A DNA stretch of 32,000 nt from Candidatus Saccharimonadota bacterium (GTDB lineage Bacteria; Patescibacteriota; Gracilibacteria; Absconditabacterales; Absconditicoccaceae). Made by a program: the position numbers and the translations under genes. Shown piece after piece: positions 1 to 32,000 of the stretch (positions are counted from its first letter, which is position 1; each line of letters starts with the position of its first letter). Where the stretch lies: the NCBI GenBank assembly GCA_030429145.1, contig JAUIDC010000001.1, forward strand, positions 240,001 to 272,000, given 5' to 3'. Under the pieces are notes generated by a model. That model had not been told where the DNA came from. It searched no databases and saw only the letters and a list, made by a program, of their open reading frames with translations.

Positions 1-5
1 GGAAA

Positions 6-1748
6 CTACCTATCAAACAAAGCATCCAAATCCCCTTTCGTCATCTTGATGAAAAATGGTCTTCCGTGCTGGCAGACGAACATGCCATCGATGTGAGAAA
101 ATCCGTCTCTTACAATATTTTGCATTTCTATGTGTGAGAGTTTTTGTCATGCCTTGATAGAAGACTTACATGCTTTCATCGCATAGAGCTCATCGAGGAT
201 GATGTCAAATGACAATGGCGATGTATGTAGTACAATATTGAATAGCTTCTCTATGTTGATCTGATATTCGACAAAAACTTTTGGCACTGCATAGACTACG
301 AGTTTATTTTCTCAAAAAAGTTCAATATCAAAACCTAGCTTTTTAAGCTCCTCTATCTTCTCATCTATCACCACTGCTTTTGGTATATCCATGCTCACCG
401 GCTGCAATAATTTTTCTGGTGACATTCCATCTTCTTGCGCTTTCTTTTTCATTTTCTCAAAAGCAATACGCTCGGCAAGTGCATGTTGATCTATCAGATA
501 CATACCATCATCTGCTTGGAGCATAATGTACATGTTTCGAAGCTGTCAGATGATAGTATATTGTGACTGATCAGCCTGAATGTGCATCTCCTCTTGCTCT
601 GTTCACGACTTCACATTGACGTTGTCATTGAATGAGAAATTGAGCATGGATCATTGTCCATGAGCAGCGCGAAATGGATTATTTAAGAAATCACTGCCGT
701 TTTTTGAAAAGGTAGCCGACGCGATTTTATCAATTGTTTCGCGAGGTATATCAATGATTTTTTCGTGTCCCAATGCATTTTTTACTGCAAGATGTACTGC
801 TTGATAGATACTTCCTGGATCTGCAAAACGCACCTCCATCTTTCTTGGATGCACATTGACGTCAACATGTTCAGGATCGACATCGACAAACAAAAGTGCC
901 AGTGGATATTGTCCCGGATGAATCTGTCTTTCGTATGCACTCAGCAATGCTTTTTTCAATATCCTATCCTGCACTGGACGAGCGTTAACGAAGATACGAA
1001 TATTTTCCTGCGAACCAAACGTGAGCGACGAATCAGAAAGCACACCATACATACGTAGTGGCGACTGATCGAAATCCAAGACGCGAACATTGCTCTCTCG
1101 CTCTTTCTTAAAGATGTCTGTAAAGCGAGTTAACAGATCTGTCGCTATTGGTAGGTCAAAGATGATCTTTCCATCTTTCTGCAACACCCAGCGTTTATCT
1201 CGGTGAACCAGTGCAAAATTCACAAATAGATCATGACAATAAAAGTACTCTGTTTGCGCCGACTTGAGAAATTTTTGCCTTACTGGTGTATTGTAAAAAA
1301 GATCTTCGACAATCACAGTCGTTCCATGCCCTCACGCAAAGCTTGATGGCTTCAGCGAAATCTCATCAGCGATCTTGGTCAATGTCTGCCCTACCGTACT
1401 ATCAGCACGTTTCGTCTGGATGGTCAACTTACTCACCTCTGCGATAGCCGCTAATGCCTCACCACGGAAACCATACGAGCTGATCGAATACAAATCCTCT
1501 TCCTCCAAAATCTTACTTGTCGCATATCTTTCTATCACAAGCTCCATATCTTCCGTTTCTATCCCATCTCCATCATCTTCTACTTTTATCAATTTTCTTC
1601 CACCATCATGAAGATCTACCACGATCTCTTCAGCACCTGCATCAAGCGAGTTTTCTACAAGTTCTTTCACCACCGAAGCAGGACGTTCGACCACCTCTCA
1701 CGCCTTCAATCTGTTTACTAGATAGTCTGGAAGTCTTTGAATCGCCAT
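6..1748 (-). CDS. mutL: DNA mismatch repair protein MutL (580 aa under table 25)
   Basis: Start [17 protein letters not shown](TGA)[21 protein letters not shown] (GHKL ATPase). C-terminal I-G(TGA)[24 protein letters not shown] and [14 protein letters not shown]-track fragments 1332..1694, 651..1316, 312..533 and the gaps I translated are one frame with only TGA between them. True stop is TAG at 6..8. Confidence 0.93.
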
Positions 1749-1825
1749 CAAGAAATCATTTTTTAACTACAAAATCGTCTGTCGAGAATATATTTATTTT
1801 ATCAGTTCATGCAATGATATTATCA

Positions 1826-2671
1826 CTATAGTGCTACTAAATATGGCAATCCAATCATCATCACCCATATGCCCACTATCATTCCCGGGAAGAAAGGGAT
1901 AAGGCGTTTCTCGCCTTCTTTGGTGATGGGAGTGACAAAAAGCAATAGCAAGGCACAGAGGCATGCAACTATGACGTAATATCGGAAATATTGGATGATA
2001 TCAAGCCATGAGAGCGCTGTAGCGCTGATCATGAGAGTGTAGACTTTCCGTAAGATAACACCGACTATGGGTGCGACCATGATGTCACCTTGGCCTAGTC
2101 CCTCTGCATCTTGTTTTCGCCTCAGACGAACATACAACTTTGCCAGTCGATAGAAAGCGAAAAAGCCTATACCGAACACAAAGAGCCACTGTGCTGCATA
2201 GAGCATCTGCTCGATGGTATGACCATATGCAAATAGTCATACCGACCCTGCGAGCAACAACCACCACACCGCTGGATGAAGATACATCGTCTTAATATCA
2301 TGTATCATCAGCAGATAGAGCGTCCAGTTTACAAAGAGGAAAAGAACTAACAAAATCACATCTCCTCCACCAAAAAGCGTCCACCAATAAAAAATTCATA
2401 AAAACATTAATCCATTCCCAAGCTCGAGCAAGGGATATCGCTTACTTACTTTCTTATGACAGTAGCGACATCTCCCTGTGCTGATAAGCCAAGAGACCAG
2501 TGGAAACAGATCATATCGAGCCAACGTATGCTTGCACTCTGGACAGTACGAACGCCCAACGAGCACAGAGCGAATCTTCTTCCAAGAGACTTCCTCTCAG
2601 AGTCTATGCAAAATGACCGACCCAAACGAGCCAAAAAGCAATCCAACAACAAATAAAACAATATAATACAT
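1826..2671 (-). CDS. pilD: Type IV prepilin leader peptidase (peptidase A24 family), 281 aa
   Basis: Manual translation 2671->1826 is continuous with three in-frame TGA. It shows the Cys box GRSYCPECKHTL...PLVSWLISTGRCRYCHKKVSKRYPLLEL and the C-terminal GLGQGD...IPFFPGMIVG. The ORF track shows only the last 126 aa. Stop is TAG. Confidence 0.85.
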
Positions 2672-31124: not shown

Positions 31125-31158
31125 CTTTGTTAGTCGTTTTTTTGTTAATTAATGGGTT

Positions 31159-31698
31159 TTACGATTCCTGTAATGTTTTTACCAAATCCAACGCCTCTAC
31201 GATCTCCAGGAACTGATTCGCAGGGTTGTTTGTAGGCTCTTCTATTTCTGTGAGAAGTTGTACATTGTTTGCGTTGAAAAAGTTGAAGCGAAAGACCAAA
31301 AAGGCAGCTCCTTCTTTTGTTCGTTTCAGGAACACTTTTAGGTAAGAAGTTTGAGTGCCAATGAGTGCTTTCTCTTCTTTACGATGAATATGACCGGAAA
31401 GCTCTGATGTCATAGGCTTGGATGTCGCCACCAGTGTTTCCTTATTGGAAAACTCTGCAGGCAAAGGTATGATCAATAAAGACATCCTTGCTGTTTGTTT
31501 CTCCGTCTTTGCTTTTCCTGTCACCTCGGGATCAATGGCGTCCTGAAACAGGCGGCGTGTTGAATGTTTGCGTTTCTGCTCTGCTTGAGACATAATTGCA
31601 TAGTAAAACACTAACCACCCTCTCTTTTCGTATAATTGAGGGGTAATGATTCCATTTTCAATCAACCATTGTGTTGTAATGTGCGAGTTTGTGGACAT
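31159..31698 (-). CDS. Hypothetical protein (179 aa)
   Basis: Intact ATG..TAA ORF immediately upstream of and co-oriented with ppdK. No TGA and no motif recognised. Confidence 0.5.
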   Translation of the reverse strand: MSTNSHITTQWLIENGIITPQLYEKRGWLVFYYAIMSQAEQKRKHSTRRLFQDAIDPEVTGKAKTEKQTARMSLLIIPLPAEFSNKETLVATSKPMTSELSGHIHRKEEKALIGTQTSYLKVFLKRTKEGAAFLVFRFNFFNANNVQLLTEIEEPTNNPANQFLEIVEALDLVKTLQES

Positions 31699-32000
31699 TC
31701 GATTTTGTTTTAATGTTGTTTTTTAATAGTTTTAATGTAATTTTTTGAAGAATAGAAGGCCTCCCTCATGTGGGAGCCTCTTTGTTTTTTAGTTTCATAA
31801 ATCGTTTTTTGGCAAATGTTAATGAACAATAATCTTCCCATTTTTTTGGAAAGACTTCGTTTATACAAAATGTCAAACTCACAACAAGGAAATATTTCAC
31901 AAAATGCATGGCAAATCGGTGGGATTTTATTATAATAGATAAATTACCTGTGTATTTTTTAAAAAAGATATAAATATCCACATGTTGATCCCTAGACCAA

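Follow-up and report, generated by a model that had tools for sequence, protein, structure and literature searches.

The genetic codes described closest to the DNA considered here, a window of 32,000 nucleotides (positions 240,001 to 272,000 of contig JAUIDC010000001.1, GenBank assembly GCA_030429145.1, analysed over its full length for the meanings of UGA, CGA and CGG), are those of the Absconditabacteria and Gracilibacteria. Translation table 25 (SR1/Gracilibacteria) goes back to Campbell 2013 and Rinke 2013, with proteomic support from Hanke 2014, as these works are cited in PMC8629427 and PMC11452946. An Absconditabacteria code in which UGA is glycine and both CGA and CGG are tryptophan was predicted with Codetta by Shulgina & Eddy 2021 (eLife, PMC8629427), who described an early stage (CGA below 37 and CGG mostly below 7 per 10,000 codons, at GC contents of 0.26-0.38) and a patchy distribution with a 'complicated history and possible reversion'; this code is restated in a 2026 paper (Nucleic Acids Research, PMC13092985). 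Code-11-compatible phages of Gracilibacteria and Absconditabacteria are thought to infect hosts of either code (PMC10746230).

The window is very probably chromosomal DNA of an uncultured CPR (Candidate Phyla Radiation) bacterium, belonging to the recoded Absconditabacteria/Gracilibacteria group and using the Absconditabacteria code, with UGA read as glycine and CGA and CGG read as tryptophan. These codon meanings rest on conserved columns of standard-code homologues and on codon exchange with relatives, the loci of which are designated by L numbers. A scan for AsnRS among GTDB species representatives met no genome identical to that of the window. In 31 of the loci that it gave, labelled Peribacteria, Gracilibacteria or Absconditabacterales (AsnRS 57-78% identical to that of the window), the table-11 coding coverage is 0.00-0.69 and is recovered with TGA as a sense codon; about 49 loci of standard-code Patescibacteria and other bacteria (AsnRS at most 59% identical) have normal table-11 coverage. 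The nearest AsnRS relatives (66-78% identity) are metagenome-assembled genomes and all show the same TGA read-through, in agreement with the placement of this DNA in the recoded Absconditabacteria/Gracilibacteria (Patescibacteria) by an earlier sequence-only reading. Gene order is shared with L003 in the left half of the window and with L001 in the right half.

The meaning of CGA and CGG

The 26 curated gene models, which occupy 88% of the window, contain 68 CGA and 17 CGG codons, equivalent to 73 and 18 per 10,000 codons beside 83 for TGG (counted over every codon of the 26 genes, Pfam-aligned or not), at a GC content of 0.41. The first sign of their unusual meaning was an exchange matrix in which TGG of the window stood opposite codons of the CGA/AGA class in relatives, after which the arginine codons were split. 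CGA of the window is found opposite TGG (24%), CGA (25%), CGG (8%), Phe or Tyr codons (24%), CGY (1%) and AGA (4%), with CGY and AGR together at 5%, and TGG of the window is found opposite CGA (21%) and CGG (5%; 26% together). The CGY, AGA and AGG codons exchange among themselves and never have TGG as a partner.

Conserved columns point the same way. Suspected conserved-tryptophan positions in the window proteins are all CGA, and genuine arginine motifs are written with CGT or CGC. Outside PPDK, comparison with PDB homologues places CGA and CGG on Trp at 13 of 26 sites, on Phe or Tyr at three and on Arg at none (P = 2.7e-18), the 13 including invariant tryptophans of LeuRS, MutY and the RNA methyltransferase. 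In LeuRS, four CGA codons (25364, 25322, 25253 and 25154) and CGG 21383 correspond to Trp in both the Thermus thermophilus and the E. coli enzymes, CGA 25313 to Trp in one and Lys in the other, and CGA 25094 to Trp in one of two PDB homologues. The MutY-like glycosylase has CGA 17570 and CGG 17411 on conserved Trp (motifs LPW and LWxGLGY) and CGA 17099 on Trp/Phe, and the methyltransferase has CGA 8080, 8173 and 8488 on Trp conserved in both of its PDB homologues (3ldu and 3k0b).

Classification of every CGA and CGG of the window by the codons of its relatives yields 28 Trp-like sites in 10 genes (the five CGA codons of RecG are Trp-like by this measure) and eight Arg-like sites, all of them in PPDK and a DksA/TraR-like gene (Fisher P = 3e-8); outside these two genes, CGA and CGG never exchange with true arginine codons in relatives. 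At six sites of the prepilin peptidase where the window has TGG, L003 has CGA or CGG, and the Trp columns of AsnRS in recoded relatives carry CGA 32 times and CGG five times. For CGG in particular, clear evidence in the window comes from LeuRS 21383 and MutY 17411 (Trp in both homologues) and from TsaC 21033 (Phe/Tyr), and CGG of L082 aligns with TGG in six standard-code homologues. With the exceptions of PPDK and the DksA-like gene, CGA and CGG are therefore predicted from these alignments to be tryptophan codons.

Two genes with arginine-like CGA and CGG

At three of the four CGA/CGG columns of the DksA-like gene, all 119 homologues have Arg; at the fourth, 91 have Arg and 28 have Lys. Because the gene product is 77-82% identical to Chitinophagaceae proteins, versus 58% to the syntenic copy in L003, the gene is read as having come recently, by acquisition or replacement, from a Bacteroidota donor with the standard code, its codons having been inherited from that donor. 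Genes from standard-code donors would retain the codon meanings of the donor, and this one would represent a barrier to gene transfer, a standard-code gene in a recoded genome whose invariant arginine codons are now read as tryptophan; if they are so read, the protein is probably damaged. Judging by the donor, Bacteroidota may be a host or a neighbour of the organism. Two homologous proteins of about 420 amino acids that look secreted (L021:3839-5119 and L020:13925-15172, both on the minus strand) have no TGA among 36-42 glycine codons, versus a local share of 21-24%, and may be further foreign, standard-code genes.

PPDK has no TGA among its 75 glycine codons (P = 1e-6 given the 17% TGA share in other genes). 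Three of its five CGA codons are on invariant arginines, shared by 101-104 of 104 standard-code PPDKs, and at the remaining two most relatives have CGT, CGC or CGG. Taken with six orthologues from recoded genomes (Table 1), the seven genes contain one TGA versus 533 GGN codons, six conserved Trp columns that are TGG in all seven, and 24 CGA/CGG codons; 21 of these are Arg-like, and 12 occupy columns in which Arg reaches at least 97%, at sites that differ between lineages. The genomes behind L082, L086 and L089 have CGA and CGG as tryptophan in their other genes. When the counts are pooled, the ratio of Arg-like to Trp-like CGA/CGG is 23:1 in PPDK and 8:95 in other genes (P = 1.5e-17). A look at other genes of relatives for Arg-like CGA/CGG gave only isolated cases, in hypothetical proteins for which no more than two comparators were at hand.

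A very recent import of PPDK is ruled out by the 65-75% identity of the orthologues to one another, by synteny (an AAA_14/DUF4143 gene upstream and pyruvate kinase downstream) that is kept in the window, L082, L084, L087 and L089, and by codon usage (for Thr, Ala, Val, Lys and Tyr) and GC content at third codon positions that follow each host genome. The next-closest standard-code PPDKs, those of Rhodothermus and Bacteroidota, are 51% identical, and the PPDK of this clade has a non-consensus residue at 72-83 of 361 highly conserved columns. There are two PPDK types in the group, this divergent, TGA-free one and a canonical, fully recoded one found in a more distant recoded genome (L066; 920 codons on the minus strand, 44 TGA). 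Under table-11 gene calling of L088 and L089, PPDK is the only long gene left intact. Shuttling of PPDK by phages was rejected: IMG/VR gave no match, and the phage records of GenBank gave no more than 44% identity.

PPDK is enriched in GGT, CGT, TTC and AAC, as is typical of very highly expressed genes. Its avoidance of TGA is ordinary, because other such genes are depleted too: EF-G (L020:3337-5481, L024:3-1790, L015:1080-3257), for example with TGA as 2 of 64 glycine codons versus a local share of 22%; a Glu/Leu-type dehydrogenase (L036:3270-4526) with TGA as none of 38 versus 65% locally; and enolase (L014:2638-4011), pyruvate kinase and AsnRS in most loci, relative to their neighbours. Evidently, UGA is a non-preferred glycine codon, scarce in genes whose expression is normally high (EF-G, enolase, pyruvate kinase, AsnRS and PPDK). 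High expression alone accounts for the avoidance of TGA, but not for CGA and CGG on Arg, as both codons are absent from EF-G and are used for Trp by AsnRS. No rule of codon context was found, the bases neighbouring Trp-like and Arg-like CGA sites being no different, and a conserved element in an untranslated region that redefines codons is unlikely, as PPDK and the gene next to it are separated by only 24 bp in L086. The presence of CGA and CGG on invariant arginines of PPDK is thus unexplained by expression, codon context, an untranslated element or phage shuttling, and the remaining options are that the sites tolerate change in a divergent enzyme, that decoding is ambiguous, or that there was a transfer from an unsampled source.

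Ambiguous decoding of CGA and CGG, as a mixture of Trp and Arg or dependent on conditions (one example being a tRNA(UCG) that TrpRS and ArgRS can both charge), would leave the arginine sites of PPDK and the DksA-like gene partly functional, and is considered doubtful. It would fit the persistence of CGA/CGG on invariant Arg, beside Trp columns that are only TGG, in the PPDK of seven recoded genomes, a protein conserved as well as its relatives and adapted in codon usage to each host, and Shulgina & Eddy state that ambiguity is not excludable without experiments (PMC8629427). A uniform mixture, however, cannot fit invariant-Trp CGA (5-7 in LeuRS) together with invariant-Arg CGA (three in PPDK), and the lack of exchange between CGA/CGG and true arginine codons outside the two genes, like the lack of a difference in codon context between the two classes of CGA, counts against it. 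A more general proposal, also rather improbable, is that CGA and CGG have no single meaning, being tryptophan in most genes and synonymous arginine codons in the syntenic chromosomal PPDK of at least four, probably seven, recoded lineages, catalytic and invariant arginines included. If true, ambiguous, condition-dependent or message-specific decoding would last into an advanced stage of sense-codon reassignment, the alternative being that PPDK is selected via a standard-code translation system. Real arginine decoding in PPDK would be direct evidence of ambiguous decoding during reassignment, a long-standing question.

Translation table 25, to which the sequence-only reading assigned this DNA, is correct as to UGA and the exclusive use of UAA and UAG as stops, but not as to CGA and CGG. 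Plain table 25, with UGA as glycine and every other codon standard, is very improbable for the window, although its UGA half is fully supported, PPDK and the DksA-like gene do have CGA/CGG at arginine positions, and this code exists in the family. In L004, L005 and L006, the AsnRS genes (at about 3604-4833, 10001-11230 and 10001-11230, respectively; 72-73% identical to that of the window) use TGA as glycine and carry CGA/CGG on Arg columns but never on Trp columns, contributing all 12 cases of CGA/CGG on Arg columns among recoded AsnRS genes. These are evidently plain table-25 lineages nested among lineages in which CGA and CGG are tryptophan, whether by retention or by reversion. In the window, by contrast, the 10 other genes have 28 Trp-like sites versus no Arg-like sites, the PDB homologues have Trp (invariant Trp included) at 13 of 26 sites and Arg at none, and TGG is exchanged for CGA/CGG in relatives at 26%. 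Table 25 would put arginine in place of about 76 tryptophans of the window (about 0.8% of residues), conserved ones of LeuRS, MutY and the methyltransferase among them.

The meaning of UGA and the reading frames

Two independent lines, conserved standard-code columns and codon exchange with recoded relatives, indicate that UGA encodes glycine, as the sequence-only reading had claimed. In alignments with the best standard-code homologues, TGA falls on Gly at 14 of 27 sites (binomial P = 1.4e-9 versus a 7.5% Gly background), the remainder being on variable columns; a predominance of Trp, which the same reading had named as evidence to the contrary, was not found (0 of 27). TGA codons of the window are found opposite TGA (40%) and GGN (40%) in recoded relatives, and never opposite TGG (0 of 113) or Cys codons; GGN of the window is opposite TGA at 15%, and UGA makes up about 15% of the glycine codons of the window. 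AsnRS was the gene used for clade-wide codon inference, over columns whose conservation among 49 standard-code sequences was at least 80%; in 32 recoded genes, TGA falls on such Gly columns 95 times, on Ser columns eight times and on Trp columns never. In the L066 PPDK, 33 TGA codons are at positions where 104 standard-code PPDKs have at least 97% Gly. Five TGA sites of the methyltransferase are on Gly, including that of the CGSGT motif.

The eight TGA codons cited individually by the sequence-only reading (25478, 28038, 1698, 11552, 17273, 8524, 21030 and 18433) are all in frame, and seven correspond to Gly in standard-code proteins (in both homologues for LeuRS, MutY, the methyltransferase and TsaC; in pyruvate kinase and MutL; and in 77 of 84 for AsnRS). 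The eighth, 18433 in the GH3-family ligase, is GGG in L001, but is ambiguous with respect to plant GH3 proteins (Ala/Gly of SSGTSAG), the structures of which are too distant for clean alignment.

UGA might instead be tryptophan (table 4, the code of Mycoplasma and some endosymbionts), selenocysteine or a leaky stop, since any sense reading of TGA rescues the open reading frames (ORFs) equally. The likelihood of this is negligible, as Trp is absent from the 27 aligned sites and from the TGA columns of the 32 AsnRS genes, TGA is exchanged for GGN and never for TGG, and selenocysteine is incompatible with 89 in-frame TGA codons spread over 20 genes. Readings by table 4, as selenocysteine or as pseudogenes are rejected.

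Under table 11, the window has 47 ORFs of at least 100 amino acids, totalling 7,921 amino acids, of which only three reach 300; with TGA as sense, the total is 17,069 amino acids, 10 ORFs reach 300 and the longest has 1,523, whereas TAA or TAG as sense gives 12,153 or 11,883 amino acids, with 3-4 long ORFs. This re-calling with other stop sets, together with Pfam domains that span TGAs (in MutL, RecJ, RecG, the THUMP methyltransferase, AsnRS, RhuM-Fic, DUF2461, MutY, GH3, two YrdC paralogues, LeuRS and others), bears out the earlier description of a table-11 track fragmented at TGA, with one correction: not every long gene is cut, PPDK (903 amino acids) having no TGA at all. The earlier claim that one gene ends in TGA is not supported either; all 26 curated genes terminate at TAA (18) or TAG (8), and no model requires a TGA stop. 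The gains that had been described for individual genes hold: 18 codons beyond TGA 5800 in recG, 42 codons in the gene at 16047..16775, a DNDDLPF tail past TGA 18049 in the DUF3127 gene, the C-terminus of the GH3-family ligase, and the RhuM-Fic/Doc gene, for which table 11 gives no ORF of 60 amino acids or more on its own strand within the gene body. That the TGAs are real stops, in pseudogenes or produced by assembly or sequencing errors, is refuted: the fragmented table-11 track and nothing further speaks for it, whereas the frames are interrupted by TGA exclusively and never by TAA or TAG, Pfam domains carry on across the interruptions, the same pattern recurs in more than 30 independent related assemblies, and relatives often keep these positions as TGA or GGN.

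The window lies within a 43,257-bp Logan contig (ERR3428547_33923), for which public gene calls already read through TGA; proteins identical to its PPDK and its DksA-like protein are also recorded from a 936,577-bp NCBI contig. Those of related loci are inconsistent (L082, L083, L088 and L089 versus L081, L084, L086 and L087), some having used a code with TGA as sense and others table 11 (as in L082, L088 and L089), which breaks LeuRS, PheRS, GH3 and other genes into fragments; therefore, many proteins of the group are truncated in databases.

Gene content, decoding and comparison with known codes

Table 1. Genes of the window, and PPDK orthologues in recoded genomes, with codons of interest (window coordinates unless a locus is named).
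Feature	Coordinates	Strand	Codons and remarks
MutL	6..1748	-	7 TGA; TGA 1698 = Gly of AAGEVVERP
Prepilin peptidase (A24)	1826..2671	-	3 TGA; CGA/CGG 6, TGG 10
RecJ	3033..4697	+	4 TGA
DksA/TraR-like gene	4895..5449	+	0 TGA, 0 TGG; 4 CGA/CGG, all on Arg columns
RecG	5746..7830	-	6 TGA; TGA 6382 (residue 483) = Gly in three PDB homologues
THUMP/UPF0020 RNA methyltransferase	7933..9021	+	TGA 7960, 7999, 8524, 8578, 8752 = Gly (PDB 3ldu, 3k0b)
AsnRS	11498..12784	+	TGA 11552 column: 77 Gly, 7 Ala in standard-code homologues
RhuM-Fic/Doc gene	12892..13893	+	10 TGA
MutY-like glycosylase	16838..17656	-	TGA 17273 = Gly (LPGVG)
DUF3127	17755..18081	+	TGA 18049; CGA 17980 and 18001 read GRWFNSISCWKI
GH3-family ligase	18106..19632	+	6 TGA including tandem 19567 and 19570; 6 CGA/CGG
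TsaC/YrdC	20529..21113	-	TGA 21030 = Gly; adjoining CGG 21033 = Phe/Tyr
LeuRS	21119..25690	-	1,523 aa with in-frame inserts; 21 TGA; TGA 25478 (Gly of GWDAFGLP), 23447, 23363 = Gly/Gly
Pyruvate kinase	26814..28244	-	One TGA, 28038 = Gly of LLDTKGPEIRT
PPDK	28413..31124	-	0 TGA; 8/8 Trp codons TGG; CGA 30420, 30171, 30144, 29220, 28458 Arg-like
PPDK orthologue	L082:10001-12733		
PPDK orthologue	L084:10001-12718		
PPDK orthologue	L086:10001-12712		
PPDK orthologue	L087:5691-8399		
PPDK orthologue	L088:10001-12712		
PPDK orthologue	L089:10001-12724		

The inserts of LeuRS (23855..25006, about 22691..23197, and 22064..22585) comprise two alpha/beta-hydrolase domains (residues 229-612) and two Nudix domains, with TGAs on glycines of the Nudix box. 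Its domains have been added stepwise within the sub-clade, because the LeuRS of L089 (825 amino acids) has no such inserts and that of L082 (944 amino acids) has one Nudix domain. Tandem genes of the Sua5/YciO/YrdC family are located at 19895..20506 and 20529..21113 (both on the minus strand), the latter with a TsaC match in Pfam (E = 9e-36) and the former divergent (E = 2e-12). A Pfam DUF3127 gene is at the syntenic position in L082 and L089. The segment 9416..10593 (1.18 kb) contains no convincing gene, its sole ORF (9524..10024, plus strand) overlapping an RRM-protein ORF on the opposite strand and having no family match; it has no Rfam match above threshold (the best being ATPC and histone stem-loop, E of about 0.08-0.09).

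On the model of the published Absconditabacteria code, UGA would be read by a tRNA-Gly(UCA), with RF2 absent, and CGA and CGG by tRNA(UCG) and tRNA(CCG) of tryptophan identity, while CGU and CGC would remain arginine via a tRNA-Arg(GCG) such as the one present in the relative L036. Since CGA and CGG carry about half of the tryptophan codons of the window, the captured codons would have recovered in frequency. When the window and about 45 loci were scanned for tRNAs and RNA families, tRNA(UCA), tRNA(UCG) and tRNA(CCG) were all missing, and no Rfam family was matched.

Several observations weigh against this assignment of the three codons. Apart from tRNA-Leu(CAA) and tRNA-Arg(GCG), no tRNA or release-factor gene is present in the window, in the analysed part of its source contig or in about 35 recoded loci. 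About 40% of TGA sites and one third of CGA/CGG sites are on variable columns and are uninformative, and the support for CGG (17 codons, two clear Trp/Trp sites) is thinner than that for CGA. The GC content of 0.41 and the CGA frequency of 73 per 10,000 exceed the ranges published for the reassigned clade (0.26-0.38 and below 37, respectively). Finally, PPDK breaks a clean rule of CGA/CGG as tryptophan by its arginine behaviour in seven recoded genomes, and appears to be a long-term resident kept under purifying selection.

Papers of 2023-2024 and annotation pipelines still use code 25, and some public gene calls use table 11; mistranslation under table 25 brings errors into protein databases, predicted structures and metaproteomic searches. 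The lineage of the window shows the transition of CGA and CGG to tryptophan after a recovery of their frequency, at a higher GC content than reported, and because sister genomes retain CGA/CGG as arginine, the group is suited to studies of how a sense-codon reassignment spreads or reverts.

Among known systems, table 4 (Mycoplasma/Spiroplasma and some insect endosymbionts) resembles the window in having UGA as a sense codon, with table-11 ORFs equally fragmented, but differs in the amino acid, which in the window is Gly, with Trp at 0 of 27 sites and no exchange with TGG. The code-11-compatible phages (PMC10746230) are similarly tied to recoded hosts and, in common with PPDK and the DksA-like gene, avoid TGA in frame, but are phage genomes, whereas PPDK is a syntenic chromosomal gene for which no close homologue was found on viral contigs. 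Table 25 shares UGA as glycine, UAA and UAG as the only stops, and the same phylogenetic neighbourhood, but keeps CGA and CGG as arginine, whereas in the window they are Trp-like in 10 genes. The Absconditabacteria code has all three of the reassignments, with CGA and CGG shifting together, and is patchy among relatives, the retention of arginine in L004-L006 fitting the account of PMC8629427; the window differs from that account in its commoner CGA and CGG (73 and 18 per 10,000), its higher GC content (0.41), and its gene-specific exceptions, PPDK and the DksA-like gene, which are not described there. A later stage of reassignment is indicated, because CGA and CGG are about half of the tryptophan codons at 41% GC versus their published rarity. 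The code of the window is thus the extended one already known from Absconditabacteria, and it has reached an unusually advanced stage.

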